Under the pieces are notes generated by a model. It was given only the letters and a program-made list of their open reading frames with translations. It was not told the DNA's origin and did no database searches. Of a stretch of DNA of 17,376 nucleotides, positions 966-17,376 are shown piece after piece. The stretch lies in IMG/VR virus record IMGVR_UViG_2703718846_000005, positions 1-17,376 of that record; one strand, given 5' to 3'. This DNA is from a virus. Its lineage: Duplodnaviria; Heunggongvirae; Uroviricota; Caudoviricetes. Within the stretch, counting starts at the first letter, position 1; each line of letters starts with the position of its first letter. Position numbers and translations under genes: made by a program.

Positions 966-966
966 C

Positions 967-2030: not shown

Positions 2031-2036
2031 CAAACA

Positions 2037-2735: not shown

Positions 2736-2775
2736 TGGCTTTGCCAATAATCGGAAAACAAAAGGACTCATTAGT

Positions 2776-2955
2776 ATGAGCTGCCCACTCAAAAAACACA
2801 CGCGGTTGAGTATTCCGCCTCGCGATAAAAGCGTTGTGGCAGTCCCTCGCCCAGCGATTGATGAAAACTGCGCACATCGTGAACAAGTGAAAAATGCTTT
2901 TGATTTCGGTTTTTCTCGTTATGAGAAAGCCATGGAAGAACTTTCAAAAGTGTAA
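2776..2955 (+). CDS. Small protein (59 aa), candidate antitoxin partner of Doc
   Basis: ATG 2776 with AAGGA 10 nt upstream; stop 18 nt before doc start; position typical of an antitoxin, but sequence is not a recognisable Phd/YefM. Confidence 0.4.
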   Translation: MSCPLKKHTRLSIPPRDKSVVAVPRPAIDENCAHREQVKNAFDFGFSRYEKAMEELSKV

Positions 2956-2973
2956 TGATGGGTATTGTGCTCT

Positions 2974-3459: not shown

Positions 3460-3475
3460 AGGCGCTTCCAATGAA

Positions 3476-3500
3476 AACCCGCTTCGGCGGGTTTTGTTTT
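3476..3500 (+). terminator. Terminator after doc (copy 2 of 20-bp repeat)
   Basis: AAACCCGC-ttcg-GCGGGTTTTGTTTTTT; the 20 nt AACCCGCTTCGGCGGGTTTT are identical to 2629-2648. Confidence 0.7.
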
Positions 3501-3574
3501 TTCCGGGCATTCTGGTTTACAATCTGCACGCCAGCCTGAACAACTGGCACCTGCTGCGCCAGCAGAGAAAACAG

Positions 3575-3853
3575 ATGGCGCACAAGACCAAATTACACAA
3601 TTCTGATAATTCAGCCGCTTTTGCCAGCAGGCACGGGCGGCGTTCTCATGTATTCAAATCTGACTGGTACCAGCATCCCCCATGCACTGAAGAACAGGCC
3701 GAATGGCTGATTCAGTGTTACGGCAGGCGCGGATACGAGGTTAAGAAAGCCCTCAGCCTCGATTATCGTCACTGGATAATCTCTGTCAGGCTCCCTTATT
3801 CCGAACGCCCACCACACCCGTCCCGCACATTCCAGCAACGGATCTGGAGGTAA
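3575..3853 (+). CDS. Hypothetical protein (92 aa)
   Basis: ATG 3575 inside ORF 3494..3853; TACAAT -10-like element at 3515-3520; stop TAA overlaps the GGAGG SD of the next gene. Confidence 0.4.
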   Translation: MAHKTKLHNSDNSAAFASRHGRRSHVFKSDWYQHPPCTEEQAEWLIQCYGRRGYEVKKALSLDYRHWIISVRLPYSERPPHPSRTFQQRIWR

Positions 3854-3854
3854 C

Positions 3855-4904
3855 GTGCGGGTATTACTTCGACCTGTTCCGGTACCGGAACTCGGGCTGG
3901 TGGTCCTTAAGCCTGGTCGTGAATCCATGCAGGTATTTCATAACCCTCGAGTGCTGGTGGAGCCGGAACCGAAAAGCATGCGCGGTCTGCCGTCCGGAGT
4001 TGTTCCTGCTGTTCGCCAGCCGCTGGCGGAAGATAAATCATTACTGCCATTTTTCAGCGATGAGCGGGTGATTCGTGCTGCTGGCGGCGCTGGCGCACTG
4101 TCTGACTGGCTGTTGCGTCATGTCAAATCCTGCCAGTGGCCTCATGGTGACTATCATCACAGTGAAACCGTCATACATCGTTACGGTACCGGCGCAATGG
4201 TGTTGTGCTGGCACTGTGACAACCAGCTGCGTGACCAGACATCCGAATCACTCGGGCAGCTTGCTCAACAAAATCTGACAGCCTGGATGATTGACGTCAT
4301 ACGCCATGCAATGAATGGCACACAGGAGCGGGAATTATCGCTGGCTGAACTGTACTGCTGGGCTGCTGTAAATGATGTAGTGGATGCCATGACCGAAAAT
4401 ATGGCGCGTCGAATCCTGAAGCTTCCGGGTGAAAAAATCCACTCAGTATACCGCGAGAGTAACATCATACCGGGAGAACAGACAGCCACCAGCATACTGA
4501 AGCAGCGCACAAAAAATTTTGCGCCGTTGCCTCACGCCCACCAGCAACAGAACCCACCACAGGAAAAGACGGTTGTAAGTATCACAGTTGATCCGGAGTC
4601 ACCGGAATCATTCATGAAGCGGCCTAAACGTCGCCGCTGGGTGAATGAGAAATACACGCGCTGGGTAAAGACACAGCCGTGTACGTGTTGTGGTAAGCCA
4701 GCAGACGATCCCCATCACCTGATTGGTCACGGTCAGGGCGGAATGGGGACAAAAGCCCACGATATTTTTACGTTGCCGCTGTGTCGGGAACATCACAACG
4801 AACTTCATGCAGATCCGCAGGCGTTCGAAGAAAAGCATGGTTCTCAGGTTGATTTAATTTTTCGTTTTCTTGATCACGCCTTTGCAACTGGCGTACTCGG
4901 ATAA
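3855..4904 (+). CDS. DUF968-like prophage protein with C-terminal HNH-type Cys/His motif
   Basis: GTG 3855 with GGAGG SD; C-terminus CTCCGKPADDPHHLIGHGQGGMGTKAHDIFTLPLCREHHNELH; resembles Qin YdfU-type proteins (from memory). Confidence 0.65.
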   Translation: MRVLLRPVPVPELGLVVLKPGRESMQVFHNPRVLVEPEPKSMRGLPSGVVPAVRQPLAEDKSLLPFFSDERVIRAAGGAGALSDWLLRHVKSCQWPHGDYHHSETVIHRYGTGAMVLCWHCDNQLRDQTSESLGQLAQQNLTAWMIDVIRHAMNGTQERELSLAELYCWAAVNDVVDAMTENMARRILKLPGEKIHSVYRESNIIPGEQTATSILKQRTKNFAPLPHAHQQQNPPQEKTVVSITVDPESPESFMKRPKRRRWVNEKYTRWVKTQPCTCCGKPADDPHHLIGHGQGGMGTKAHDIFTLPLCREHHNELHADPQAFEEKHGSQVDLIFRFLDHAFATGVLG

Positions 4905-4916
4905 AAGAGGTTACTG

Positions 4917-5291
4917 ATGGGGATAGAATTTGTTTTGCCTTACCCGCCGACGGTAAACACCTACTGGCGACGCCGTGGCAGCACATATTTTATATCGGAA
5001 GCCGGTAAGCGTTATCGCCGTGATGTGGCACTTATAGTTCGCCAGCAGAGGCTGAAATTAAACCTGTCCGGAAGGCTGGCGATAACGGTTATTGCCGAGC
5101 CTCCGGATAAGCGCCGTCGTGATCTGGACAATATCCTGAAAGCGCCACTGGATGCACTGACACATGCGGGGTTGCTCATAGACGATGAGCAGTTTGATGA
5201 AATCAATATTGTGCGCGGTCAGCTCGTTCCTGGTGGGCGGCTGGGCGTGAAGATTTACGAAATAATGCATGACGGGCAGGTCCAAAAATGA
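4917..5291 (+). CDS. rusA: Holliday junction resolvase RusA
   Basis: ..RRRDLDNILKAPLDALTHAGLLIDDEQ.. matches the RusA catalytic region; AAGAGG SD; stop overlaps Q start (ATGA). Confidence 0.9.
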   Translation: MGIEFVLPYPPTVNTYWRRRGSTYFISEAGKRYRRDVALIVRQQRLKLNLSGRLAITVIAEPPDKRRRDLDNILKAPLDALTHAGLLIDDEQFDEINIVRGQLVPGGRLGVKIYEIMHDGQVQK

Positions 5292-6109
5292 AACTGGAAG
5301 ATTTACCGAAATACTATTCCCCAAAATCGCCAGGCCTGACTGATGTATCCGCCTCGACGTCAAAAGATGCACTGAGTATCACTGATGTGATGGCTGCGCA
5401 GGGGATGACACAGAACCGGGCTGAGATGGGATTTTCTGCGTTCCTGGGGAAAATGGGTATTAGTATGAATGACAGGGTGCGGGCAACAGAATTACTGACA
5501 GATTATGCATTAAGTCAGTGCGATCGTGTGGCGGCGTTAAGGAAACTTCCGGCAGAAATAAAACCGGCAGTGATGCGTATTATGGCTTCGTATGCTTTTG
5601 AGGATTATGCCCGCAGCGCAGCGAGTAAAAAGCAGTGCCCTTGTTGCCATGGGGAAAAATTTATTGAAAGCGAAGTTTTTACAAACAAGGTTCAGTATCC
5701 GGATGGTAAGCCGCCAGTATGGGCAAAGTGTACAAAAGGCGTGTATCCGTCTTACTGGGAAGAATGGAAAAAAATCCGGGAGGTGGTGAAAGTTTCCTGT
5801 CCTGAATGTAAAGGGAAGGGGGAGATCTCCACTGCCTGTAAAGACTGCCGTGGGCGTGGTGTTGCCATTCATCGTGAAGAGTCAGAAAAACGGGGTATGC
5901 CTGTTATCAGGGGCTGCCGGCGTTGTGGCGGTCGTGGCTATGAAAGACTGCCATCAACGGAGGCATTTAATGCCATATGCAAAGTGACGAGTGCTATCAC
6001 GCTTGATACATGGAAAAAATCAGTGAAACGCTTTTACGATACGTTGGTGGTTCGGTTTGACATTGAAGAGGCATGGGCGGAGCGGCAGTTAAAGATGGTA
6101 ACGCGATAG
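5288..6109 (+). CDS. Late-gene antiterminator Q (Phage_antitermQ-like) with four CxxCxGxG zinc-finger repeats
   Basis: N-terminus MKLEDLPKYYSPKSP typical of Q antiterminators of E. coli prophages; sits immediately upstream of the late promoter. Confidence 0.8.
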   Translation: MKLEDLPKYYSPKSPGLTDVSASTSKDALSITDVMAAQGMTQNRAEMGFSAFLGKMGISMNDRVRATELLTDYALSQCDRVAALRKLPAEIKPAVMRIMASYAFEDYARSAASKKQCPCCHGEKFIESEVFTNKVQYPDGKPPVWAKCTKGVYPSYWEEWKKIREVVKVSCPECKGKGEISTACKDCRGRGVAIHREESEKRGMPVIRGCRRCGGRGYERLPSTEAFNAICKVTSAITLDTWKKSVKRFYDTLVVRFDIEEAWAERQLKMVTR

Positions 6110-6112
6110 TGT

Positions 6113-6143
6113 TGTTGATTTTTCCCGAATCTGTGGTAAATTC
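6113..6143 (+). promoter_or_regulatory. pR'-like late promoter (extended -10), presumed qut region
   Basis: TTGATT (6116-6121), 16-nt spacer, TGgTAAATT extended -10 (6134-6143), immediately after Q stop; small hairpin CGCCC-taacgat-GGGCG at 6144-6160 just downstream. Confidence 0.4.
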
Positions 6144-6190
6144 GCCCTAACGATGGGCGTTTTGTGCCTGACGTTAGAAGAATTTTTACA

Positions 6191-6217
6191 ACCCGCCACC
6201 GAGCGGGTTTTTTATTG
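6191..6217 (+). terminator. tR'-like terminator of short late leader RNA
   Basis: CCCGC-caccgag-CGGG followed by TTTTTT, about 50 nt downstream of the predicted late start. Confidence 0.65.
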
Positions 6218-6336
6218 CCCGAAAAACGGTACAGAACATTAAACGCGCTGGTGGTTACGAATACCGGTCTTTCAGCTTGTATTTTTGTAAATCGATATAT
6301 ACTTATCTTGTGACCAGTAATGTCAGGGCAATTGAT

Positions 6337-7080
6337 ATGAATGAAGCCTGTTCTGTTGTTTTTGTTCATTCCCCGTTTGTTGTGCTCTTTGAAGGAAAAG
6401 AGCTCTCTCTTGAAAGTGGTAGTGCACTTCTTGTCAGGGGGGGAGCTGGATCGTTATTGCCCTTTTCGGAATGTTTTCGGCGAATAAGTCTCAGTGAATC
6501 GACAATTAGCCGTTACCTGTTGTGTGGAGACGAAAAACAGGATGTAGTTTTAGTCCGGCAAATACCACGATATCTTTGCGTGAGTTTTCCCAAGGCAGAA
6601 TTGATGGGCATCCTGATTGATTATCTTTGTGAGGAAAAGATTCATACGGACAATTTAGCGGAAATGCTTTCCTTTTCGTGTCTGGCGTTTTTCTCATCAG
6701 AGAAAATGTTTTCGTCGTTTCTGACCGCGTGTATTAGCAATATTAGTGACAGGCTTAGTGCATTGTTTCGTACGGACATTGCAGCAAACTGGACTCTGAG
6801 AGATGTGTCTTCGCGGTTATGTATCAGTGAAAGTTTGTTAAAAAAAAGACTGAAAGAAGAAGGCACCTGTTTCAGTGAGTTGTTGCTTACAGAGAGAATG
6901 AGAATGGCAGCAATGCTGTTGAATCAATCTCGTTGCGCCATCAACAGAATCGCTGCTCAGTGCGGCTATAATTTTACATCTTATTTTATCAGCGTATTCA
7001 GGAGTTATTTTGGTGTTACACCGGCAGGTTACAGGATGGCTGCATTCAATGAGATGAGTTTAAGTGTTACTCAAGAATAA
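6337..7080 (+). CDS. AraC/XylS-family transcriptional regulator (AppY/EnvY/GadX-like), AT-rich moron
   Basis: C-terminal dual HTH (..LLKKRLKEEGTCFSELLLTERMRMAAMLL..IAAQCGYNFTSYFISVFRSYFGVTPAGYR); N-terminus MNEACSVVFV resembles AppY-type regulators; visibly AT-richer than flanks. Confidence 0.85.
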   Translation: MNEACSVVFVHSPFVVLFEGKELSLESGSALLVRGGAGSLLPFSECFRRISLSESTISRYLLCGDEKQDVVLVRQIPRYLCVSFPKAELMGILIDYLCEEKIHTDNLAEMLSFSCLAFFSSEKMFSSFLTACISNISDRLSALFRTDIAANWTLRDVSSRLCISESLLKKRLKEEGTCFSELLLTERMRMAAMLLNQSRCAINRIAAQCGYNFTSYFISVFRSYFGVTPAGYRMAAFNEMSLSVTQE

Positions 7081-7102
7081 TTGAATTTTGCACTCATTGA
7101 AA

Positions 7103-7131
7103 AAGGCTCGCTCCGGCGGGCCTTTTTCATA
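7103..7131 (+). terminator. Terminator after the AraC-family gene
   Basis: GGCTCGC-tccg-GCGGGCC hairpin (one mismatch) followed by TTTTTC. Confidence 0.5.
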
Positions 7132-7264
7132 TCTGCGCCACGCCCGGCGCACATCAAAAAACCACAGAGCCTTTCAGGGGGGAGCTTACGGGATGGTCAG
7201 TGTGACTTTCTCTGTGGGCTGCTCATCCCGGGGCGAGGCTCACCCACTAAAAGGAAAAGTCACG

Positions 7265-7690
7265 ATGTTTGGTATTTTCAAAAAGAAAACCCGTAAGGCT
7301 ATTACTGAAGTGAAGAAAATGGAGAACCGCGACGCAGTGGAGGCGACCGTCTGGGGCGCGTATTCCATTGCATACGCTGACGACACCTGTGACGCGAAAG
7401 AAATTGCGGTACTGGAGAAAACCATTGCAGCACTTCCTGCCTTTGCGCCGTTCTCCGGTGAGATTGCACAAATGAGTGCAAATATCCGCGCCCGTTATGA
7501 AGCATCACCGCGTTCTGCCAATGCTGAAGCTCTTCGTCAGCTGGCTGATGTTGCAGGTACTGATGATGCAGTTAATGTGCTGTGCCTGTGTCTCGATATT
7601 GCTGACCAGGACGGTATTGGTCCGGATGAAGAAGCACAGCTCAAGAAAATTGCGCAGGCGCTGCAGTTGCCACTGGAGCAGTATCTGTGA
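7265..7690 (+). CDS. TerB-like (tellurite-resistance TerB family) protein
   Basis: ATG 7265 with AAAGGA SD; two TerB-like helical repeats (AYSIAYADDTCDAKEIAVLEKTI and VLCLCLDIADQDGIGPDEEAQLKKIAQAL) resembling TerB as I remember it. Confidence 0.65.
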   Translation: MFGIFKKKTRKAITEVKKMENRDAVEATVWGAYSIAYADDTCDAKEIAVLEKTIAALPAFAPFSGEIAQMSANIRARYEASPRSANAEALRQLADVAGTDDAVNVLCLCLDIADQDGIGPDEEAQLKKIAQALQLPLEQYL

Positions 7691-7845
7691 AAACTGCGCG
7701 CCTTGTGCTGGCTGCCATCCTGTTGTTTCTGGTAGTGGCGGTTGATTTCACCGGGCGCCTGATGTCGGTGCTGGCTGATGGCGTGCTGGTGGTGATGGTA
7801 GTGGTCGTGCTCCGGCCTTTATTCCGGAACAAAAACAACAGCTGA
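7687..7845 (+). CDS. Small membrane peptide (52 aa) translationally coupled to the TerB-like gene
   Basis: GTG overlaps TerB-like stop (GTGA); product VKTARLVLAAILLFLVVAVDFTGRLMSVLADGVLVVMVVVVLRPLFRNKNNS is predicted TM; terminator follows. Confidence 0.4.
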   Translation: MKTARLVLAAILLFLVVAVDFTGRLMSVLADGVLVVMVVVVLRPLFRNKNNS

Positions 7846-7852
7846 TTATTTG

Positions 7853-7882
7853 AGCGGGCATTGAAAGCCCGCTGCATTTTTA
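7853..7882 (+). terminator. Terminator of the TerB-like unit, overlapping the stop of the convergent minus-strand gene
   Basis: AGCGGGC-attgaa-GCCCGCT hairpin followed by TTTTTA; the minus-strand side lacks a U-run. Confidence 0.55.
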
Positions 7883-8560
7883 TTGCTGCTGTTCCTTAAT
7901 GCGTTCCGGTAGCACAAATGCCACTTCAAGGAACAGGCGGAGAAACGCCACAAACTCTTTTGCCTGTTCACTACTGGCCTCGAGTTCGTGCACAGCCTCA
8001 TTGCCTTCCATACGGATTCGGTGAGCCCAGTTTCTCATTGATTCCGTCAGTATGCCGTCCTGCCGTGCCAGTTCAATGCGTGACAGCAGATTGCCTTTTT
8101 CGTACCCCAGGGCACGGAGGGCAACCTCGAGGACGCTACGGCAGCCAACAATGATACGCGGGGCGGTTCTGCCGGACCGAACATCCTCCTGCAACTCAGT
8201 GAAGACTGCGCGAATTTTTTCGGGATAGTGGGGGGAGTCATCGGGCAGCCTGAGTTCAGGATAGATTTTGATGCTTCCCTCAAGTGGAGCATTCAGCACC
8301 CAGGCTTTGTTGTTGATGGCTTTTTTCATGTCCACCAGTTCACTGACTGAACATTCGAATGCGATCATTAATGGGTTGTTACATTCTGTGCAAAAGTCTG
8401 TTGAGTATGCTTTTGCTGATGTTATTTCAGAGGTGCGCGGCTGTTGCACGTAAAGCTTGTTTTCTGTAGCCGGGCGCCTGCTGTGGTACTGGGTGACCTC
8501 ATTCAGAGAAATATGAACCTGATGAAGGCAGTACGGGCATCTAATTTTCAGGGAGTACAT
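7880..8560 (-). CDS. Zn-ribbon plus DUF4145-domain protein (226 aa), candidate defence/abortive-infection-type protein
   Basis: N-terminal CPYC...CTEC zinc ribbon; C-terminus ..RSVLEVALRALG..LLSRIELARQDGILTESMRNWAHRIRMEGNEAVHE..AKEFVAFLRLFLEVAF matches the DUF4145 pattern from memory; start at minus ATG 8560-8558 with AAGAGG SD. Confidence 0.65.
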   Translation of the reverse strand: MYSLKIRCPYCLHQVHISLNEVTQYHSRRPATENKLYVQQPRTSEITSAKAYSTDFCTECNNPLMIAFECSVSELVDMKKAINNKAWVLNAPLEGSIKIYPELRLPDDSPHYPEKIRAVFTELQEDVRSGRTAPRIIVGCRSVLEVALRALGYEKGNLLSRIELARQDGILTESMRNWAHRIRMEGNEAVHELEASSEQAKEFVAFLRLFLEVAFVLPERIKEQQQ

Positions 8561-8767
8561 ATGACCTCTTCGACAGAAGTGATAACTGAATTTGAAAATT
8601 GCATAGCAGATTCTGCCATTGATTCTGTAGCAGCGATAGAACGAAGGTTTGCTGCTGCTCAGACCCGGTATGGTCATGATGCAGCCGTCAAGGGGCTGGC
8701 AATGGCGTTTGTTATTGCGGAGAACCGCCGTCGCTTTATTGAAGCGCAAATGACACTAAAGCAATAA
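8561..8767 (+). CDS. Hypothetical small helical protein (68 aa)
   Basis: ATG 8561 with GGGAG SD 5 nt upstream; tandem terminators follow; start codon abuts the divergent DUF4145 gene start (CATATG). Confidence 0.45.
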   Translation: MTSSTEVITEFENCIADSAIDSVAAIERRFAAAQTRYGHDAAVKGLAMAFVIAENRRRFIEAQMTLKQ

Positions 8768-8780
8768 ATAGCACCACACA

Positions 8781-8841
8781 AAAGGCATCTGTGGGTGCCT
8801 TTGACTGGGTGTTTTTTTACGGGCCGACAGAGGCCCTTTTT
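8781..8841 (+). terminator. Tandem rho-independent terminators
   Basis: AAAGGCA-8 nt loop-TGCCTTT then U-run; GGGCC-gacaga-GGCCC then TTTTTT. Confidence 0.6.
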
Positions 8842-8860
8842 TATTTACAGGAGAAAAAGT

Positions 8861-9250
8861 ATGTCTGAACCCTTATCCGGTTCCGGCACGGCTGCGGCGC
8901 TCGGCGGGGCGACGGTATTCGGGCTGTTTACCGGAACGGATTTCGGGATTGTGTTTGGTGCATTCGCAGGGGCGCTGTTTGTGGCCACGATACCACAGAA
9001 GATTTCTGTCTGGCGTGTGGCAGCGCATTTTCTGGTGTCGTTCATTGTTGGCGTGCTGGGGGCGGATGTGATGGCGTCTTACCTGGTTGAAAAACTGAAT
9101 CTCCACAGCACATCTCTCGACGCACTTTGCGCGGTACTGGTATCGGTGGTGTCGGTGAAGATTCTCTCATTCATCCACCAGCAGGATATCGCATCGCTGG
9201 TATCCGGGCTGTTCTCCCGTCTGCGGGGTGGAGGCGGTAATGTTAAGTAA
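8861..9250 (+). CDS. Putative holin (3 predicted TM segments, 129 aa)
   Basis: AGGAG SD before ATG 8861; three hydrophobic segments, charged C-terminus; first gene of lysis cluster. Confidence 0.6.
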   Translation: MSEPLSGSGTAAALGGATVFGLFTGTDFGIVFGAFAGALFVATIPQKISVWRVAAHFLVSFIVGVLGADVMASYLVEKLNLHSTSLDALCAVLVSVVSVKILSFIHQQDIASLVSGLFSRLRGGGGNVK

Positions 9251-9515
9251 CCTTCCCGGATTACTGAATGTGGTGTTAAGCACGGTTATCGTGCTGACGC
9301 TCTTTTTTTATCGTCGCCGTGATTCCAGACATAAACCGCTGATGTCATGGCTGGCCTGGCTACTGATGCTGCTTTATGCCTTTGCACCACTCAGCTATCT
9401 GTGCGGTCGCCCGTTAGCGGCGAACTGGCTGGCGGTGGGGCTTAATCTGCTGTTCTGCGTGCTGGTGATACGTGCACGCGGGAACGTTTCAAAAATCCTT
9501 TCATTCCGGAGGTGA
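9240..9515 (+). CDS. Second holin/antiholin-like membrane protein (91 aa)
   Basis: ATG 9240 overlaps holin stop; three hydrophobic segments; basic C-terminus. Confidence 0.5.
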   Translation: MLSNLPGLLNVVLSTVIVLTLFFYRRRDSRHKPLMSWLAWLLMLLYAFAPLSYLCGRPLAANWLAVGLNLLFCVLVIRARGNVSKILSFRR

Positions 9516-9517
9516 GC

Positions 9518-9895
9518 ATGTCGGGTAAATTCAGATTCAGTCGTCGCAGTGAAAAAAATCTGGAGGGCGTCAAACCACAGCTGGTTGCTGTTGTTCGCCG
9601 TGCGCTGGAGCTGACGGAGGTTGATTTCGGTATTACGGAAGGTCTGCGCAGTAAGTATCGCCAGAAACAGCTGGTTGCAGAAGGTAAGAGCCAGACCATG
9701 AACAGCCGCCACCTGACCGGTGATGCTGTGGATGTTGTGGCTTATGTTGGCAGCCAGGTGTCATGGGACTGGCCTCTGTACGAGAAAATCGCACAGGCAT
9801 TTAAGCAAGCTGCCGCAGAGCTTGGAACTGCCATCGAATGGGGCGGTGACTGGCGGACGCTTAAAGACGGCCCACATTTTCAATTGAAGCGATAG
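9518..9895 (+). CDS. Endolysin, peptidase M15 family (L-alanyl-D-glutamate peptidase / VanY-like)
   Basis: SRHLTGDAVDV (SxHxxGxAxD zinc-binding motif) and ..WGGDWRTLKDGPHFQL; GGAGG SD before ATG 9518. Confidence 0.8.
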   Translation: MSGKFRFSRRSEKNLEGVKPQLVAVVRRALELTEVDFGITEGLRSKYRQKQLVAEGKSQTMNSRHLTGDAVDVVAYVGSQVSWDWPLYEKIAQAFKQAAAELGTAIEWGGDWRTLKDGPHFQLKR

Positions 9896-9912
9896 CTTGC
9901 AAAACATACAGG

Positions 9913-9934
9913 GCCGCCATGAGCGGCTTTTTTA
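9913..9934 (+). terminator. Terminator after endolysin
   Basis: GCCGC-catga-GCGGC followed by TTTTTT. Confidence 0.65.
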
Positions 9935-9965
9935 TTGCTCAAAAAACGAAAGAACGGAGGTACGT

Positions 9966-10247
9966 ATGTACGCACTGAAAAAAATCACGGTAACTAAAGA
10001 TGGTCGTCAGGTTGAAGAAGTGCATGTTCTGGGGAATATGTATCGTCTGGAGTTCTATCCGCGTGACACTCATCTTGCAGCAAAAATTGAGTATTGCCTG
10101 GGCGGGGATATTCCATGTATTCCGGTAGAAAAAGAGGATGAGGCTTACATTACCACGCTGACCGGAGACACGGTGCGTTGTATCTGTCGCGGTGACAGTA
10201 AAGCCAGGAATGAAATAGCCAGATGCCGCACCCAAGGCAGTAAATAA
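9966..10247 (+). CDS. Hypothetical Cys-containing protein (93 aa)
   Basis: ACGGAGG SD before ATG 9966; bounded by terminators on both sides. Confidence 0.5.
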   Translation: MYALKKITVTKDGRQVEEVHVLGNMYRLEFYPRDTHLAAKIEYCLGGDIPCIPVEKEDEAYITTLTGDTVRCICRGDSKARNEIARCRTQGSK

Positions 10248-10254
10248 AAAACAA

Positions 10255-10287
10255 AACCCCGGCTGCTGGAACAGTCCGGGGTTTTTA
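10255..10287 (+). terminator. Strong rho-independent terminator
   Basis: CCCCGG-13 nt loop-CCGGGG followed by TTTTT. Confidence 0.85.
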
Positions 10288-10377
10288 GTTTTCACGTCAA
10301 AGAGGAAATTGTGAGTAGTGAGTACGGAGAAAATCCTCGTGGGAAAGTATAAAAGATTCTTTTTGAGGTTGTCCATT

Positions 10378-10491
10378 ATGAAAGGTATTGAAGTGGAAAC
10401 TCCCGCGAGCCTTGATTTGACAAGGGCTGCGGCCTTTGCAATTCGCCTTGTGGCGGTCGCTGTTCTGATTTGGGCTGTGCGTTGGTGGTGA
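10378..10491 (+). CDS. Small TM peptide (37 aa)
   Basis: GAGG SD before ATG 10378; MKGIEVETPASLDLTRAAAFAIRLVAVAVLIWAVRWW; stop 1 nt before the lipoprotein start. Confidence 0.35.
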   Translation: MKGIEVETPASLDLTRAAAFAIRLVAVAVLIWAVRWW

Positions 10492-10492
10492 C

Positions 10493-10675
10493 ATGAGCCG
10501 AAAACACTGGACACACAGAATGCCTCGAACGGCGGTGAAATGGGCGCTGATAGCGATACTGGTGCCTTTTTTCCTGGTGGGATGTGTCAGCCTGGATAAA
10601 GCGCGCCAGCTTTTTGATACAGCTTCTCAGGTCTGTGAAATTGTCGACGGTGTTCGGCAGTGTCTGCAGAACTGA
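10493..10675 (+). CDS. Small predicted lipoprotein (60 aa)
   Basis: Basic n-region, hydrophobic core ALIAILVPFFLVG, lipobox LVGC; short mature part with 3 Cys; not proline-rich like lambda Rz1. Confidence 0.5.
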   Translation: MSRKHWTHRMPRTAVKWALIAILVPFFLVGCVSLDKARQLFDTASQVCEIVDGVRQCLQN

Positions 10676-10846
10676 TCGCCTGTAAGAGCAGAATATTTTG
10701 CTGAAAAATGAAGGATGCGCCGGCGTCCGGAAAGCATGAAATTCTGTGTTTGTGGCTACTCAATTAAATAAATTCTTTCTGTCGCCGCGAATACTCAAAT
10801 GTTGATCAGCGCCCGGTGCGGCGACGAGCTTCGATATCAGGAGACG

Positions 10847-11146
10847 ATGATGGAAAAAACAGAAAACAAACCGATTGTAATTGGTGCTGATGCTGCTCCG
10901 TTTAAGTTTGAGTTGTCTCAACTGGTGGAGATGCGCATCAGTGATGAATGGGGGGAGGTTAAAGCCCGCGCGCAGTATGCGGATGGCGAAAACCAGTACT
11001 TGATCCACTACAAAGCAGCTGATGGTCGCGCCACGACGGAGTGGTTTGGTGAGTCAATGCTGGAAGCAACGGAAGATGATCGCCATCCTGGCTGTCCGGT
11101 ATTTGCTGGTATGAAATTGCCGGAAGGTGCGGTTGTTACAGAGTAA
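10847..11146 (+). CDS. Hypothetical acidic protein (about 99 aa)
   Basis: AGGAGA SD (10838-10844) before ATG 10847/10850; in ORF 10799..11146. Confidence 0.5.
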   Translation: MMEKTENKPIVIGADAAPFKFELSQLVEMRISDEWGEVKARAQYADGENQYLIHYKAADGRATTEWFGESMLEATEDDRHPGCPVFAGMKLPEGAVVTE

Positions 11147-11351
11147 CAGACATTACAGCAGCCCTTCAGCGAGGGGCTGCGATAATGTGAGAAATAAAAA
11201 ACCGGTCACAGGGAACAGCCACACAGAACCGGCCGGCGAAGACCGCCAATATCACCCGAGCATCGGTACAACATACTTATGACAATAGACGGTATTGATG
11301 TAAATGCAATGTTATGCATCGACGAAAATAAAAAACCGGCAGGGGAAATCC

Positions 11352-11492
11352 ATGGAAGATTTGCCGGTGGCGAAAGAGGGCCATGTTTTTAACCTTAGTC
11401 GCAGAGTTACGGAGTGCAACTACGAATGCTGCCGGTATATGGCTGAATGGCGTTTCAATGATGTGCATCATGTTATGCGCAAACGAAAGTGA
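11352..11492 (+). CDS. Small Cys-rich ORF (46 aa), doubtful
   Basis: Internal ATG of ORF 11304..11492; weak SD. Confidence 0.2.
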   Translation: MEDLPVAKEGHVFNLSRRVTECNYECCRYMAEWRFNDVHHVMRKRK

Positions 11493-11504
11493 TAATCGCT
11501 CCCG

Positions 11505-11690
11505 TTTTCACGGGTCCTTTCCGGGAGTTGAAACACCGGGGGTCGTAGGACGCGCAAAAACGCGCTATTTATGAAAATTTTCAGGGAACCATGTCCGGTT
11601 TCACTACTGGTTAACTATATGAAAAATATAAAAACAAGCTTTTTGTGAACCGGACATGTACAAAAAACGAACATGCAAACCGGACATGAG
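11505..11690 (+). promoter_or_regulatory. cos site region (cosQ-like, cosN region, cosB with IHF-like A/T tract and three R-like repeats)
   Basis: TTTTCACGGGTCCTTTCCGG and GCTATTTATGAAAATTTTC match the lambda right/left end sequences as I remember them; 10-bp motif ACCGGACATG occurs at 11649-11658 and 11679-11688 and inverted at 11590-11599; lies directly upstream of the Nu1-like gene. Confidence 0.6.
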
Positions 11691-11732
11691 CGGTTTTCTG
11701 ATTGTGAGGTGAGAGTTTTTGCGAGGTGAGTC

Positions 11733-12242
11733 GTGGCTACGCAGACTGAAGTTGCCAGGCATTTGAGTCTGACCGATCGCCAGCTTCGCAGATTGCAGAA
11801 ATTGCCGGGTGCCCCGGTCTCGAATAAACGGGGGCATCATGACTTGGATGCCTGGCGTGATTTTTACATATCGTATCTGAGGAGAAGTAAAAATGATGTG
11901 TCTGATGGTGATAGCGAAGAAGACTATGAAGAAAAATTACTTATCGCCAGATGGAAATTGACTGAAGAACAGGCAATAGCACAGCAATTAAAAAATCAGG
12001 TAACTGAAGGCAGACTTATTGATTCAGGGTTCTGCGTTTTCGCCCTCAGCAAACTGGCGATGGCATTGTCCAGTACGCTTGATTCCATTCCTTTATCCAT
12101 GCAGCGACAGTTCCCGGATTTAACCCCGCGTCATATTGATTATCTGAAAACCCTTATCGCAAAGGGAGCGAATCAGTGTGCGCGGGCAGGGGATAAATTG
12201 CCGGAGTTACTCGATGAATATATCCGAACAACAGTTGAATAA
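11733..12242 (+). CDS. Terminase small subunit (lambda Nu1-like)
   Basis: GTG start with GAGGTGAG SD; ..FCVFALSKLAMALSSTLDSIPLSMQRQFPDLTPRHIDYLK.. closely parallels lambda gpNu1; overlaps the large-subunit start as in lambda. Confidence 0.9.
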   Translation: MATQTEVARHLSLTDRQLRRLQKLPGAPVSNKRGHHDLDAWRDFYISYLRRSKNDVSDGDSEEDYEEKLLIARWKLTEEQAIAQQLKNQVTEGRLIDSGFCVFALSKLAMALSSTLDSIPLSMQRQFPDLTPRHIDYLKTLIAKGANQCARAGDKLPELLDEYIRTTVE

Positions 12243-14574
12243 TATGATGATCGCCGTCACAACCGCATTACAGCCACTAATAAGGGCATTGCCGGTCACG
12301 CCGGTTGAATGGGCTGATCAAAATTATTATCTGCCTAAAGAATCGTCATACGGTGAAGGAGAGTGGAAAACCCTGCCGTTTCAGGTCGCCATTATGAACA
12401 GCATGGGGCACGACAGGATCCGCACTGTTAATCTGATTAAATCGGCGCGTGTGGGTTACACCAAAATGCTGCTGGGCGTGGTCGGGTATTTTATTGAGCA
12501 TAAATCCCGTAACAGCCTGCTCTTCCAGCCGACAGATTCCGCAGCTGAAGATTTTATGAAAGCGCATGTGGAAGCAACGCTCCGGGATGTCCCCAGCCTT
12601 AAAGCGTTATCGCCATGGCTGGGCAGAAAACATCGGGACAACACACTCACCCTGAAGCGTTTTTCCTCCGGCGTGGGGTTCTGGTGCCTGGGGGGGGCCG
12701 CTGCTAAAAACTACCGTGAAAAATCTGTGGATGTGGTCTGCTATGACGAACTCTCCTCGTTTGAACCGGATGTGGAAAAAGAAGGCTCGCCGACGCTGCT
12801 TGGCGATAAACGTATCGAAGGCTCGGTATGGCCTAAATCCATACGCGGCTCAACGCCAAAAATTAAAGGCTCCTGCCAGATTGAGAAAGCGGCGAATGAA
12901 TCTGCGCATTTCATGCGGTTTTATGTCCCTTGCCCTCATTGCGGGGAGGCCCAGTATCTGAAGTTTGGCGATGATGCGACGCCGTTTGGCCTGAAATGGG
13001 AGAAGGGTAAACCCGAAACGGTGTATTACCTGTGTGAACATAATGGCTGTGTGATCCGCCAGTCGGAACTTGACCAGACCGACGGATGCTGGATTTGTGA
13101 CAATACCGGGATGTGGACGCGTGACGGCCTGACATTTTACAGTGCCGGTGATGAGGAAATCCCGCCACCGCGCTCAATTTCGTACCACATCTGGACGGCA
13201 TACAGCCCGTTCACCACCTGGGTACAGATTGTTTATGACTGGCTCGATGCACTGAAGGATCCGAATGGCGTCAAGACGTTCATTAACACCACGCTCGGGG
13301 AGCCCTATGAAGAGGCCGTGGCAGAAAAACTGAGCTTTGAGTTGTTGCTGGAAAAAGTCTGCCACTATGGCGCGCAGGTTCCCCTGCGGGTGGTTTACCT
13401 GACCGCAGGGATAGACTCCCAGAAAGATCGCTATGAAATTTATGTTTGGGGCTGGGCTCCCGGCGAAGAAGCCTTTCTGATTGACAAGCAAATTATCATG
13501 GGGCGACCGGAGGACGAGGACACCCTTAAACGTGTTGATGCGGTGATCCGGAAAAAATACCGCCATGCTGACGGTACTGAAATTTCCATTTCCCGCGTCT
13601 GCTGGGATACCGGTGGTATCGACCAGGACATTGTGTATCAGCGATCCAGAAAACACGGCACTTTTTTTGTGCTTCCCATAAAAGGGGCATCGGTGTATGG
13701 CAAGCCGGTGATCACCATGCCCAAAAAGCGCAACCAGCGTGGTGTGTTTTTGTGTGAGGTGGGCTCCGATACCGTCAAGGAAATGCTGTACGCCCGTTTT
13801 GCCCTGCCGGTGGTTTCTGCCAGTGAAGCAGCTCCGTATACCTTCCGTTTTCCGGATAACCCGGACATTTTTTCGGAAGAAGAGGCGCGTCAAATCGTAG
13901 CGGAAGAACTGGTGGAAAAGGTGGTTAACGGCAGGGTGAAACTGCTGTGGGATAAAAAAGGGCGACGCAACGAAGCCCTCGACTGCCTGGTATATGCTTA
14001 TGCCGCCCTGCGCGTTTCGGTACAGCGGTGGCAACTGGACCTTGAAGCACTGGCGATGGCACGAAAAGATGAGCAGGATGAGGATGATATGAGCATGGAA
14101 GAGATCGCGGCTGCACTGAGTGGAGGATATTCCAGTGCCAGGGCATCCGCCAATGAGTCGTGGCGGTATTTTATGGGAAAACGAAAATTTGTGGCCAGTC
14201 GCCTGGCGTCACAGATGTTTGCCTGCTGGCTGGAGGAAGCCCTTATTCGTGGTGTGATCCGTCCGCCGAAATCCCGTTTCTCATTCTGGGAGGCTCGTTC
14301 CGGGTGGTGCCGTGCCGAGTGGATTGGTGCCGGTCGTATGGCGATTGATGGCCTTAAGGAAGTGCAGGAAGCGGTGATGCGCATTGAAGGCGGCCTGAGT
14401 ACATACGAGAAAGAGCTGGCCCTGATGGGGGATGACTATCAGGAGATTTTCCGCCAGCAGCTACGGGAAACTCAGGAGCGACAGGCTGCCGGTCTTCCGC
14501 GTCCGGTCTGGATAAAGGACGCGTTTCAACAGCAGATCCGACAGACAACGGGAGAAAAAGGCGATGCGCTGTAA
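12214..14574 (+). CDS. Terminase large subunit (lambda gpA-like) fused in frame to the C-terminal part of the portal protein (gpB-like)
   Basis: N-terminus MNISEQQLNN..VEWADQNYYLPKES..GDKRIEGSVWPKSIRGSTPK.. follows lambda gpA for about 637 aa; from about 14128 the frame continues as ..YSSARASANESWRYFMGKRKFVASR..MAIDGLKEVQEAVMRIEGGLSTYEKE.., which matches the lambda portal C-terminus (from memory). Confidence 0.85.
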   Translation: MNISEQQLNNMMIAVTTALQPLIRALPVTPVEWADQNYYLPKESSYGEGEWKTLPFQVAIMNSMGHDRIRTVNLIKSARVGYTKMLLGVVGYFIEHKSRNSLLFQPTDSAAEDFMKAHVEATLRDVPSLKALSPWLGRKHRDNTLTLKRFSSGVGFWCLGGAAAKNYREKSVDVVCYDELSSFEPDVEKEGSPTLLGDKRIEGSVWPKSIRGSTPKIKGSCQIEKAANESAHFMRFYVPCPHCGEAQYLKFGDDATPFGLKWEKGKPETVYYLCEHNGCVIRQSELDQTDGCWICDNTGMWTRDGLTFYSAGDEEIPPPRSISYHIWTAYSPFTTWVQIVYDWLDALKDPNGVKTFINTTLGEPYEEAVAEKLSFELLLEKVCHYGAQVPLRVVYLTAGIDSQKDRYEIYVWGWAPGEEAFLIDKQIIMGRPEDEDTLKRVDAVIRKKYRHADGTEISISRVCWDTGGIDQDIVYQRSRKHGTFFVLPIKGASVYGKPVITMPKKRNQRGVFLCEVGSDTVKEMLYARFALPVVSASEAAPYTFRFPDNPDIFSEEEARQIVAEELVEKVVNGRVKLLWDKKGRRNEALDCLVYAYAALRVSVQRWQLDLEALAMARKDEQDEDDMSMEEIAAALSGGYSSARASANESWRYFMGKRKFVASRLASQMFACWLEEALIRGVIRPPKSRFSFWEARSGWCRAEWIGAGRMAIDGLKEVQEAVMRIEGGLSTYEKELALMGDDYQEIFRQQLRETQERQAAGLPRPVWIKDAFQQQIRQTTGEKGDAL

Positions 14575-15523
14575 TTTATCACATATTGCCGCGATGGCAT
14601 TTAATGAGCCGCTTTTACTGGAACCCGCCTATGCGCGGGTTTTCTTTTGCGCACTGGGTAAGGAGATGGGGGCGGGCAGCCTTGCCGTTCCGCAGCAGGC
14701 CGTTCAGCTTGATGCCGATGGTATGCAGCTGGCGGTTACCGATTATATGACTGGTGGTCCGCGTCCGGTAAAGAGTTACCAGGTGAAAAATGGTATTGCC
14801 ATTCTGCCGGTGAGCGGCACGTTGGTACATAAAATGGGTACCCTGCGGCCATATTCCGGTATGACCGGTTATGACGGTCTGACTGCCCGTCTTAAGTCAG
14901 CGGTGAACGACCCGGATGTACGCGGCATTTTACTGGATATCGACAGTCCGGGTGGTCAGGCTGCCGGGGCGTTTGACTGTGCTGACATGATTTACCGTCT
15001 GCGGGAACAGAAGCCCGTGTGGGCGCTGTGTAATGACATGGCCTGTTCAGCCGCCATGTTGCTGGCGGCGGCCTGTACGCGTCGGCTGGTCACGCAGACG
15101 GCAAAAATTGGTTCGATTGGTGTGATGATGGCGCACACCAGTTACGAGAAACAACTGGCACAGGAAGGCGTGGATATCACGCTGATTTACTCCGGGCAGC
15201 ACAAGGTTGACGGCAACAGTATTCAGGCGTTGCCGACAGGTGTGCGTGCGGATTTTCAGCGCCGTATTGATGAGGCCCGCCGGATGTTTGTCGACAAGGT
15301 GGCGCTTTATACGGGGCTGAGTTCAGAGGCGGTGATGAATACCGAGGCTGCCGTTTATGACGGTCAGGCAGGCATTGATACAGGCCTGGCTGATCAACTG
15401 ATTAATGCTGCAGATGCCGTTGATGTACCATATTATTCTGAAAGCCAGACAGAATACATCCGCAGTGGTCATGAGAACGGTGGCGACAGTGGTGACAGGT
15501 CCGGCAGGAGAATATGCTTTTGA
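14564..15523 (+). CDS. Head maturation protease/scaffold gpC-like (S49 peptidase family), C-terminally truncated at a deletion junction
   Basis: ..HIAAMAFNEPLLLEPAYARVFFCAL..ILPVSGTLV..SGMTGYDGL..GVMMAHTSYEKQLAQEGVDITLIYSGQHKVDGN.. parallels lambda gpC to about aa 290, then diverges into 30 unrelated codons. Confidence 0.75.
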   Translation: MRCNLSHIAAMAFNEPLLLEPAYARVFFCALGKEMGAGSLAVPQQAVQLDADGMQLAVTDYMTGGPRPVKSYQVKNGIAILPVSGTLVHKMGTLRPYSGMTGYDGLTARLKSAVNDPDVRGILLDIDSPGGQAAGAFDCADMIYRLREQKPVWALCNDMACSAAMLLAAACTRRLVTQTAKIGSIGVMMAHTSYEKQLAQEGVDITLIYSGQHKVDGNSIQALPTGVRADFQRRIDEARRMFVDKVALYTGLSSEAVMNTEAAVYDGQAGIDTGLADQLINAADAVDVPYYSESQTEYIRSGHENGGDSGDRSGRRICF

Positions 15524-16793
15524 AGCTCAGACCGGAAAATATGACGTTTATCTTCGGTCGTGTATTGAAAGGGAATACTGTGTCGGTGATATTTCGGTTT
15601 ACCACGATTCAACGCCCGGCACGCTGAATGATTTTCTGACAGCCATCGATGAAGGTGACCTCAAACCCGACGTGGTGAAACGTTTTGAGGAAATGGTGGC
15701 GCAGGCGCAGCAGAGCGCGGAAACGGCAACAGAAAGCGAACGACAGGCAGGGCAACATGCAGACGCTGCCGCCCGGGTAAAAGAAGATGTAAAAAAACTG
15801 GTGGAAGGTGTTCAGCAGAACGCCGACGCGGTTGCGGAGGGTAAACAACAGGCCGAAACTCTGGTCTCACAGGTTGAGGATACCGCCGCAGAGGTCAGGC
15901 AGGATGCTGAAGCCGCGAAAAAGGCCGCATCTGATGCAGAGCATGTCAGGGAGGATATTGACACTGCGTTATCTGCGACACTGAAAACGGCGAATCGCCT
16001 GTCAGAGCTGGCTGATGAAGGTGAAGAGGCTCAGCAGGAATCCCGTGATAATCTTGGACTGAAAAGCGCAGCCACAATGACGCCACAGAGCGACATTCGT
16101 GACCGGACTGAAGGCCGTCTGGCGACACCTGGCGCATTTGGTTTTGGGCATATTTTTTTGCCCGCAGAGCGTATCCGTTTTAACACAGAGGATGATTTTC
16201 TGTCCTGGGTAAGGAATGCGACGCCGGGTGAATATTTTGTTGAGGGTGACAGTAAAATCATATCCGGAGGTGTGTTGTTTAACGGGATGGTCCGCATCCG
16301 GTGGGTTGAGGCACGCAATAATCCACCGGAGCCGCGATATACAGCAAAGGCCATTATTTTCTACGGTATTAATGGCGATGTTTATTACAACCGCTACTGG
16401 ACAACAGGTAATGGTTATCTGACTGGCTGGGAAAATCTGAAGATGACCTCACAGGACATTATCTCTCTTCTGTCCGGTATTGCTCCCGGTACCACGGACG
16501 GCTGGTACGGTGCAGGCAGTCTTGTACTGGCGGCTTATAACGGTAAGGGAGACGCAGACACCGACCGCCGGATAAAACGCGGTTACAGCTATCCGGGGTC
16601 ACGCCTGAGCGCGGTTGAATTTATGTGTCACGGCACGACCGGTAGCGGGGTTGGATATAACGGCAGCGTTTCCGTATATGTGCGGGGTTCTGGTGGTGGT
16701 ATGCCGGGGTCATATCGGGCACTGTCAGGTGACGGGCTCGGGTCTGCCGGGTCAGCCAGTGTCATGATTGGTTTGTTCATACGTATTGCGTAG
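15426..16793 (+). pseudogene. Side tail fibre protein (Stf-like), lacking native N-terminus and start; joined out of frame to gpC remnant
   Basis: ..ILKARQNTSAVV..DISVYHDSTPGTLNDFLTAIDEGD.. matches lambda Stf from about residue 20; Ala/Glu/Gln-rich coiled-coil then C-terminal domain; only fortuitous upstream ATGs (15405) lie in gpC-derived sequence. Confidence 0.65.
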
Positions 16794-16800
16794 GTGTTTT

Positions 16801-17376
16801 ATGGAAATAAAACGCATCGAAAATGCGCGTTATCTTGAAAATGGCGCGATTGACTGTGGGGTGTTGTTTGATGGCATGGATGAACCGGTTCCGTATACGG
16901 CAACTGCCACGGATACAGCAGAGACAGGGCAGCGAGTCTGGCAGGAACTGCAAAGCGGCAAGTGGGGAGAAATAACGCCGTTCACCGTCACGTCAGAGAT
17001 GCTGGAAGCAGCAAAAGCAGCCAAACGCCGGGAAATTGAAGCATGGCGTACAGAGCAGGAGGCGCAGCCATTCATTTTTGAATGGAACGGTCATAGCTGG
17101 AACGGGGGACCGGATTCGATGGCCCGTCTTTATCCGGTGGCGATGGCGTCGAAATCCGACACAGCACGGGACGTCATGACGTGGGGTGATGCGGAAAATC
17201 AGCAGGTAAAGTTGTCAATGCAACAACTGGATGAGTTGCTTACTGCAATGGTTCAGGCGCAGGTTGATCGCAATGATGAAATTTATCGCCGCCAGCGGGA
17301 AATGAAAGATGCGTTAAATGCACTGGATGGTTTGAACTCGATCAGAAAACTAGTTATTAGCCCAGAAAATTTTTGA
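16801..17376 (+). CDS. Tail fibre assembly protein (Tfa-like chaperone)
   Basis: ATG 16801 just after stf stop; size and position typical of Tfa; ends at window edge with TGA. Confidence 0.7.
   Translation: MEIKRIENARYLENGAIDCGVLFDGMDEPVPYTATATDTAETGQRVWQELQSGKWGEITPFTVTSEMLEAAKAAKRREIEAWRTEQEAQPFIFEWNGHSWNGGPDSMARLYPVAMASKSDTARDVMTWGDAENQQVKLSMQQLDELLTAMVQAQVDRNDEIYRRQREMKDALNALDGLNSIRKLVISPENF

Follow-up and report, generated by a model that had tools for sequence, protein, structure and literature searches.

An in-frame fusion of terminase and portal genes at a deletion junction in a lambda-like prophage remnant of Escherichia coli

Results

Genes and features of the locus

The window, by which we mean the whole 17,376-nt stretch analyzed (IMG/VR record IMGVR_UViG_2703718846_000005, positions 1 to 17,376), derives from the E. 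coli draft genome GCA_001575625.1, in which the element adjoins serT and hyaA. The source is a draft, multi-contig assembly, and the contig concerned (LOOR01000027.1) is 78.6 kb long and recorded for two samples. Its gene order is that of a lambdoid prophage (nin-Q-lysis-terminase) and is collinear with full prophages, with the Q antiterminator and lysis genes kept. The immunity, replication and integrase part of the prophage, to the left, lies off this contig. The features from cos to the end of the window, each with the evidence for it, are as follows.

11505-11690 (+): cos site (alignment to relatives and repeat count)
11733-12242 (+): terminase small subunit (Nu1 homologue), 169 aa, intact (Pfam Phage_Nu1, E 4e-20)
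12214-14127 (+): terminase large subunit part of the fusion ORF, all 638 codons (Pfam and ungapped alignment)
14128-14129 (+): deletion junction 1 (BLAST against intact relatives and direct sequence reading)
14128-14574 (+): portal-derived tail of the fusion ORF, 148 codons corresponding to portal residues 360-507, with the portal's own stop kept (alignment and PDB match)
14564-15523 (+): truncated head protease/scaffold gene, gpC-like, S49 peptidase (Pfam Peptidase_S49, E 4.8e-33)
15423-16793 (+): side tail fibre gene, 5′-truncated (Pfam phage_tail_N, E 1.1e-42, profile positions 20-133 of 134)
15427-15428 (+): deletion junction 2, out of frame, with 0-1 bp of microhomology (alignment to the C5 prophage and direct reading)
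16801-17376 (+): DUF4376 protein, tail-fibre-assembly-like partner of the fibre and last gene of the remnant (gene calls and Pfam, source contig)

A tRNA-Ser(tga) gene (serT; positions 15323-15410 of locus L003) lies 160 nt past the window end, and hyaA is also found just beyond. Intact relatives of the element are carried by strain CEA224S (yccA/serT), by E. coli C5 (ssrA) and on contig AATQRI010000053.1. The CEA224S prophage occupies the same chromosomal locus as the remnant, with its integrase beside yccA. Across Nu1, A, the 3′ end of the portal gene and the 5′ half of C, the intact relatives and the window share 94-99% nucleotide identity. Unlike the window, all three encode a 638-aa A protein with its own stop codon, W, a 507-aa portal and a 538-aa C protein, and possess complete head and tail modules. 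The element has therefore lost virion-essential genes relative to collinear complete relatives, and it lies at an integration site at which other strains harbor complete prophages. Related head modules are very common: the region is covered to 80% or more in 1,247 of 5,426 complete E. coli genomes, and near-identical lambdoid head-gene clusters occur at a median of two, and up to seven, places per genome.

A terminase ORF that continues into portal sequence

The fusion ORF (12214-14574, +) encodes 786 aa from the ATG at 12214, or 798 aa from an alternative GTG at 12178, and its stop codon lies at 14572-14574. It consists of all 638 residues of the terminase large subunit followed, with no stop codon between them, by portal residues 360-507. 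The original prediction of an in-frame terminase-portal fusion at 14100-14160 was borne out, as pairwise alignment put the breakpoint in that interval and the deletion in frame. The breakpoint falls at 14128-14129, where 1,337 bp are missing relative to each of the three intact relatives. In BLAST comparisons, window positions 10263-14129 matched positions 1-3867 of an intact relative (L004) and positions 14128-15427 matched its positions 5203-6502, with the left match ending at 14129 and the right match starting at 14128. The overlap is a 2-bp microhomology, TA, common to the TAA stop of the terminase gene and the TAT codon for portal Tyr360, and at the junction the former has become the latter. 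The missing segment comprises the final base of that stop codon, the entire W gene, which had been predicted to be absent, and portal codons 1-359. The same junction was reproduced against the C5 prophage (locus L009), and matches in complete E. coli genomes begin exactly at 14128. At 97-99% identity, the terminase and portal content of the fusion is homology and no chance resemblance.

The terminase part is identical to the complete 638-aa large subunit of the closest intact relative (P0001/L004) at 619 of 638 positions, with no gaps, and is collinear with residues 1-638 of the 641 of lambda gpA at 64% identity. Both catalytic domains are complete and far over the Pfam cut-offs: GpA_ATPase (PF05876) was matched at residues 48-291 (E 3.6e-53, profile positions 4-245 of 247) and GpA_nuclease (PF20454) at residues 322-602 (E 2e-68, profile positions 2-287 of 294). 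When aligned with 81 intact 638-aa homologues (82 sequences in all), the terminase part kept every family-invariant column and showed no residue private to the window. It was right to say that the ORF follows gpA, but the terminase does not stop short of its end, as had been thought; it is complete to the last residue (…ALSGG), after which intact relatives have their stop codon. Full-length collinearity, conserved residues and the cognate Nu1 gene and cos site directly upstream all place the protein in the gpA family. The feature of that family that it lacks is a free C-terminal docking end, since 148 residues follow the lost stop codon.

The added residues (639-786 of the fusion) are identical at 147 of 148 positions to residues 360-507 of the 507-aa portal of L004, in agreement with the claim that the last 150 or so residues derive from the portal. 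They represent the C-terminal end of that protein; the predicted loss of its N-terminal portion stands, with the share put at 359 of 507 residues (71%) rather than three quarters. The tail corresponds in position to lambda gpB 382-533 and aligned at gpB 382-526 with 71% identity. The Pfam portal model (PF05136, Phage_portal_2) gave no match to the tail at E ≤ 0.001, and its origin was recognized by direct alignment and by a PDB sequence search, which returned 8k38, 'Portal protein B', at residues 380-526 (E 7.8e-61). In gpB the stem is formed by residues 250-279 and 343-367 and the clip by residues 280-342 (PMC10721106), and these two parts make up the channel and outer face of the portal (PMC10721106). 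By these domain limits the tail retains most of the second wing segment, the crown and the C-terminal tail. Compared with gpB (PDB 8k38), to whose last 148 residues it is homologous, it is a fragment without the N-terminal wing, stem and clip and without a start codon of its own. It thus does not have the complete wing-stem-clip-crown fold of the dodecameric channel and, judged from what is encoded, cannot act as a portal.

Nu1 and cos are intact

Both Nu1 and cos had been predicted to be intact, and both are 100% identical to those of an intact relative (L004). In Nu1 the identity extends over 170 of 170 positions (169 aa plus the stop), and, as in lambda, the large-subunit gene starts within Nu1, the overlap being 29 nt. 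A 281-nt segment spanning cos is identical to that of L004 and is conserved in PhiR12_1 and CEA224S. It contains a cosQ-like sequence, ACGGGTCCTTTCCGG, at 11510-11524, a 12-mer, GGGTCGTAGGAC, at 11540-11551 that aligns with the cosN cohesive end of lambda, and an I2-like element, CGCTATTTATGAAAATTTTC. An 11-mer, AACCGGACATG, occurs three times, at 11590-11600 (−), 11648-11658 (+) and 11678-11688 (+), compared with 0.24 copies expected, and none of 200 shuffled sequences reached three copies. These copies appear to be arranged like R3, R2 and R1 of cosB, the sub-site assignments being based on the lambda-type alignment. The putative cosQ-like, cosN-position, I2-like and three R-type elements follow the order seen in lambda. 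At cosN the window has GGGTCGTAGGAC where lambda has GGGCGGCGACCT, and the intact relatives L004 and CEA224S differ from lambda in the same way.

A second deletion removes the morphogenetic genes

Only 1.3 kb downstream of junction 1 we found a second junction that was not part of the original prediction. Here codon 288 of the gpC protease gene meets codon ~20 of a tail-fibre gene, and 18,086 bp (~18.1 kb) are missing relative to the collinear C5 prophage, where window positions 14128-15427 correspond to L009 20081-21380 and positions 15429-17309 to L009 39467-41347. The loss encompasses the rest of C/Nu3, D, E, FI, FII, all tail genes, J, lom and the first stf/tfa pair. The gpC-like gene is authentic up to 15427 (codons 1-288 of 538; 99.4-99.5% nucleotide identity with L004 and C5) and then continues through 31 out-of-frame codons of tail-fibre DNA to a stop. 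About 20 codons are missing from the 5′ end of the side tail fibre gene, whose present ATG start codons lie inside gpC-derived DNA; from codon ~21 the gene is 97.6% identical to the second stf of the C5 prophage. Slipped mispairing between longer direct repeats was considered for both deletions and rejected, as the two sides of junction 1 have only 2 bp in common and those of junction 2 have 0-1 bp.

The fusion allele is confined to one draft assembly

A BLAST search with the sequence spanning junction 1 found it in none of 5,426 complete E. coli genomes, and the exact 30-nt junction had no match among GTDB representatives, a set with one genome per species and hence one of E. coli. In a search with the whole fusion protein, none of the best 120 hits covered more than 81% of the query, and the full-length, undisrupted homologues among them were 638 aa long with 79-81% query coverage. 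The fusion protein sits in a cluster whose representative has 638 aa, and a whole-protein search therefore cannot exclude other fusions; since such a search hides fusions behind the representative, an exact contig look-up was run in addition to the junction BLAST. By this look-up the exact fusion protein is encoded on one contig (two samples) among public assemblies. Among the 15 cluster members listed (40 of 1,036 read), the fusion is the only entry of 786 aa and the listed full-length members have 638 aa. 'Terminases' of 730-742 aa were considered as similar fusions and set aside, the one compared (P0008, 742 aa) having an internal tandem duplication of ~100 aa. At NCBI the fusion is recorded as KXQ52697.1/WP_061362018.1 under the name 'terminase gpA endonuclease subunit', which indicates neither the portal origin of its last 148 residues nor its place in a gutted prophage. 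A literature search with the WGS accession LOOR00000000 gave no match.

Discussion

The analysis establishes where exactly both junctions lie, that Nu1, cos and the terminase part are complete, and that the allele, known from one draft assembly, is rare. The fusion is very probably the scar that an illegitimate deletion, recent and private to one strain, left in a decaying lambda-like prophage, with the frame kept by chance. By its gene content the element is a dead prophage remnant irrespective of any activity of the fusion, because the deletion at junction 2 removed the scaffold, capsid and tail genes. We propose that one E. coli strain acquired a lambda-like prophage at serT, beside hyaA. 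A first illegitimate (non-homologous) deletion of 1,337 bp would have run from the TA of the terminase stop codon to the TA of portal codon 360, destroying the stop and keeping the frame, so that translation of the 638-residue terminase would continue into the final 148 portal residues. A second illegitimate deletion, of ~18.1 kb, would have taken out everything between a point midway in the gpC protease gene and the start of a tail-fibre gene. Microhomologies of 2 bp and 0-1 bp are typical of illegitimate recombination, and the in-frame outcome is most simply put down to chance (about one in three for a random deletion) and not to selected design. The near-pristine state of the surviving genes (Nu1 and cos at 100%, the portal tail at 147/148, the gpC fragment at ~99.4%, no private terminase residues) argues for a recent event, although purifying selection would give the same picture of a terminase without degenerative substitutions, and with one genome the two are inseparable.

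Lambda offers a guide to what the fusion might do. The C-terminus of lambda gpA contacts the portal, its extreme end being the prohead-docking element (PMC4856287), and the Aam42 terminase, which lacks the last five residues, is competent for nicking but defective in prohead binding (PMC4856287). The fusion resembles gpA in the collinearity of residues 1-638, in both Pfam domains and in the similarly overlapping Nu1 gene upstream; it differs in that the stop is lost, 148 portal residues are added and the C-terminal docking end is not free. An intact terminase could still be made as part of the fusion, as originally proposed. Provided that transcription of the late operon persists, a complex of Nu1 and the fusion could form on cosB and nick cosN; nicking may survive because loss of the gpA C-terminus in lambda leaves it intact. 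Docking on a prohead is unlikely, because in lambda it needs the extreme gpA C-terminus, which is here internal; by this analogy the lost free end probably matters for docking, and the 148 added residues probably abolish it even if cos nicking survives. The remnant itself would make no portal, scaffold, capsid or tail, and there would be nothing to package into. To the extent that lambda genetics applies at 64% identity, the fusion may nick cos but would not be able to package.

Among alternative explanations, one is that A, W and B are intact in the strain and that the draft assembler joined non-adjacent stretches. The source is indeed a draft, multi-contig assembly, and the presence of several near-identical lambdoid head clusters per genome is a classic cause of mis-assembly. 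Yet the 2 bp shared at junction 1 are far under any assembler k-mer, and a repeat-collapse join would not be expected there; the second join, 1.3 kb away, is likewise homology-free, both flanks are collinear with real prophages, and the contig is on record for two samples. We therefore regard an artefact as very unlikely. That the C-terminal 148 residues are a natural extension of this terminase family deserves practically no credence. The silence of Pfam, which gave the tail no portal label, is all that we found in its favor, whereas all 81 aligned homologues and every intact relative examined have terminases of 638 aa that end in …ALSGG, and the tail matches the adjacent portal of L004 almost residue for residue as well as that of lambda.

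It is also very improbable that the fusion is a retained functional gene, be it as a cos-cleaving terminase through which related helper phages could mobilize the remnant and the adjoining chromosome, or as a dominant-negative terminase/portal fragment that disturbs the packaging of superinfecting relatives and thereby serves as a defence encoded by the prophage. The in-frame join, the intact Nu1, cos and conserved terminase residues, the retention of Q and the lysis genes, and the abundance of phages with the same head module would all fit such a role. Against it, the allele is found on one contig and in no complete genome, with no sign of spread or maintenance; about a third of random deletions would be in frame, and the neighboring deletion is out of frame and destructive. 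In addition, the terminase has its C-terminal docking end buried (PMC4856287) and the retained portal piece is without clip and stem (PMC10721106). Satellite hallmark families (cos-type PICI or similar), such as an integrase or regulator of its own, a primase-replicase or genes that redirect a helper, are absent from the gene calls of the source contig, from which the left part of the prophage is missing, and a satellite or PICI reading was rejected on gene content and on collinearity with full prophages. An active chimera that nicks cos, and thereby makes the remnant and the hya region mobilizable or poisons the packaging of superinfecting relatives, is accordingly given very little weight.

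As a deletion scar in a decaying prophage, the fusion invites comparison with the defective lambdoid prophages of E. coli K-12, DLP12, Rac and Qin. Like cryptic lambdoid prophages, the remnant lies at a tRNA-associated site (serT), with complete relatives at the same locus elsewhere, and keeps its nin region, Q, lysis and terminase genes, its morphogenetic genes having been lost by deletions. Unlike the classic K-12 remnants, it contains an in-frame chimera of two genes, its genes are essentially without point-mutation decay and its allele is private to one assembly; on the latter two grounds it looks much younger than they are.

The finding matters little beyond annotation, and would be of wider interest only if the fusion interferes with related phages; in that case, poisoning of packaging by a wing/crown piece of the portal, carried on a docking-blocked terminase, would be an accidental form of defence by a prophage remnant. 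For annotation, prophage predictors may score this gutted region as terminase-positive. The locus provides a clean, datable example of prophage decay, with two homology-free deletions amid pristine surviving genes, and the naturally C-terminally blocked terminase could be used to separate cos nicking from prohead docking.

Structure of the terminase-portal fusion

The reading frame concerned is:
12178-14574, + strand: fusion ORF that gives 798 aa if started at a GTG or 786 aa if started at the ATG at 12214; this start overlaps the 3' end of the Nu1-like gene upstream

Across 14100-14160 the ORF translates as …MEEIAAALSGG followed directly by YSSARASANESW…, reading through from …ALSGG as the original prediction had it. 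Residues 1-638 gave a gap-free alignment with the whole 638-aa terminase large subunit (P0001; 619/638 identical) of L004, a locus on contig AATQRI010000053.1 and the closest intact relative found, and residues 639-786 aligned to the C-terminal residues 360-507 of the 507-aa L004 portal (147/148 identical), which bears out the proposed order of terminase, then portal. Alignment with the lambda proteins, suggested earlier as a check, agreed, placing gpA 1-638 (of 641) on residues 1-637 with 64% identity and gpB 382-526 on residues 639-786 with 71%. The gpA ATPase and gpA nuclease domains are both complete (Pfam), and the only solved structures matching the portal tail were lambda 'Portal protein B' (8k38, E 7.8e-61) and another portal (8vhx). 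By sequence, the left part is a bona fide terminase that differs from the lambda-type gpA family in the absence of a free C-terminus; the right part, compared with lambda-type gpB, is a portal fragment and no portal.

The original prediction would have been refuted by a tail native to this terminase family, and that possibility was rejected. Full-length homologues without internal duplication among the best 120 database hits were 638 aa long and covered only 79-81% of the query, and the C-terminus was …ALSGG in 81/81 aligned 638-aa homologues; the 148-aa tail is therefore no feature of this family, and the portal identity and the 8k38 match also speak against it. The same search returned four E. 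coli proteins of 730-742 aa (P0008, P0010, P0012 and P0017) deposited as 'terminase large subunit' that are ~100 aa too long. P0008, the one compared, owes its excess length to a tandem duplication inside the protein (roughly residues 289-388), a different form of damage to a terminase allele of E. coli prophages.

Two deletions in the head and tail genes

Positions 1-3867 of L004 matched 10263-14129 of the window and positions 5203-6502 matched 14128-15427, the two pieces overlapping by the dinucleotide TA at 14128-14129. Intact relatives end the terminase gene with …GGA GGA TAA and have TAT as portal codon 360 (…GTC AGT TAT TCC AGT…); the window reads …GGA GGA TAT TCC AGT…. A deletion of 1,337 bp has taken out the final base of the terminase stop codon, all of W (the head-tail joining gene) and codons 1-359 of the portal gene, putting the two reading frames in register, so that the predicted in-frame loss of a W-like gene and the front of the portal is confirmed. 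The size and position of the deletion were identical when measured against E. coli CEA224S and the E. coli C5 prophage. When a 161-nt probe across the junction was used, none of 5,426 complete E. coli genomes spanned it, matches starting exactly at 14128; the junction was likewise found in no species-representative genome.

A larger deletion downstream was absent from the original prediction. The gpC-like S49 protease gene has a normal start at 14564, overlapping the portal stop, and is ~99.4% identical to its relatives only as far as 15427 (codon 288 of 538). From 15429 on, the window corresponds to the C5 prophage's second side-tail-fibre gene, entered at ~codon 21, and then to the DUF4376 partner of that gene. 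The join at 15427-15428 (context 14564-16793) puts gpC codon 288 onto ~codon 20 of the fibre gene, out of frame and with 0-1 bp of microhomology, and the opening ATG codons of the truncated fibre ORF sit in gpC-derived DNA that is read in another frame (MLQMPLMY…). Compared with the C5 prophage, which is collinear, the window lacks 18,086 bp, an interval in which C5 carries the remainder of C/Nu3, D, E, FI, FII, all of its tail genes, J, lom and its first stf/tfa pair. Two homology-free deletions are thus present, one of which replaces a stop by a sense codon, so that two adjacent genes are fused in frame. Given the loss of scaffold, capsid and tail genes, the element is a gutted prophage remnant.

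The lambda-type head module (Nu1-A-W-B-C-D-E-FI) is common to CEA224S, AATQRI010000053.1 and C5. In CEA224S and AATQRI010000053.1 this module is combined with a P2-like contractile tail (baseplate J/W/V, sheath, tube), in C5 with a lambda-type non-contractile one, and the fibre genes of the window are of the C5 type. This is a case of head/tail module mosaicism inside one lineage.

Locus, cos region and upstream genes

The tRNA-Ser(UGA) gene and the hya operon lie directly past the window end, and the same yccA/serT locus in strain CEA224S holds a complete relative. The source contig, LOOR01000027.1, starts only ~235 bp left of the window (contig position ~235 is window position 1), inside prophage DNA just right of the relatives' replication genes. 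The part with the integrase, immunity and replication functions therefore lies outside the visible sequence and is perhaps lost or located on a different contig.

The upstream genes are typical lambdoid ones: Hok/Gef, Fic, DUF968, RusA, a Q-type antiterminator, an AraC-type regulator, two holins, an M15 endolysin and then Nu1. In 2348-3459, ahead of the DUF968-RusA-Q block, the gene for a toxin of the Hok/Gef family (70 aa) is followed by a 59-aa ORF and a Fic-domain protein (161 aa). The interval between the Q antiterminator and the holins is a cargo position in Stx phages; here (6337-8370) it encodes the AraC-type regulator (247 aa), a protein with a faint TerB match, a DUF3927 protein and, on the minus strand, a DUF4145 protein, possibly moron or defence cargo.

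Nu1 and the 281 nt covering cos are each 100% identical to those of L004, and the earlier claim that both are intact therefore holds at sequence level. The cos region contains a cosQ-like ACGGGTCCTTTCCGG, a 12-mer where the lambda cohesive end sits, an I2-like CGCTATTTATGAAAATTTTC and three copies of AACCGGACATG (0.24 expected), one inverted and two direct, resembling the cosB R3, R2 and R1 sites. Phage PhiR12_1 has the lambda cohesive end GGGCGGCGACCT; at this position (11540-11551) the lineage of the window instead has GGGTCGTAGGAC, with a close variant in strain CEA224S. On either side, the cosQ-like and I2-like elements and the R repeats are conserved, and the comparison suggests a differing cohesive-end sequence within an otherwise lambda-type cos.

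Origin and predicted properties of the fusion

The join was presumably made by illegitimate recombination, its in-frame outcome being a matter of chance (roughly 1 in 3). Every residue of the terminase part occurs in at least one of the 81 intact homologues, and the surviving genes are almost pristine, the portal tail differing at a single residue. The exact fusion protein is on record in one contig (two samples) among public assemblies, and its 786-aa length is unique among the cluster members listed, the full-length ones being 638 aa. All of this speaks for an event that is recent and private to the strain.

Provided that the late operon is transcribed, Nu1 and the fusion could, by analogy with lambda, still assemble at cosB and nick cosN. 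Lambda Aam42 gpA, which is without the last five residues, is nicking-competent and forms Complex I but does not bind proheads, because the gpA C-terminus contacts the portal (PMC4856287). Docking by the fusion is probably lost, since this C-terminus now lies inside the protein, with 148 residues after it. The appended piece comprises most of the second wing segment and the crown of gpB (domain limits from PMC10721106); without stem and clip, it should be unable to form a portal. The remnant itself, without portal, scaffold, capsid and tail genes, would be unable to package anything.

The window derives from an E. coli draft assembly (GCA_001575625.1), and the terminase-portal join could in principle be an assembly artefact. 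We regard this as very unlikely, as the join shares only 2 bp, far fewer than the word size of any assembler, and another join free of homology occurs 1.3 kb away. It is also very unlikely that the fusion has been retained for a function, such as allowing helper phages to mobilise the remnant or interfering with such phages: the intact reading frame is the sole point in favor, but distribution is limited to a single genome.

Prophage decay by deletion is a well-known kind of event. This chimera seems to have escaped notice so far; it is annotated simply as a terminase (KXQ52697.1/WP_061362018.1, 'terminase gpA endonuclease subunit'). The main value of the finding is correct annotation, and the protein might also serve as a naturally occurring tool for studying cos nicking apart from prohead docking. 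Taken as a whole, the element represents a young defective lambdoid prophage.
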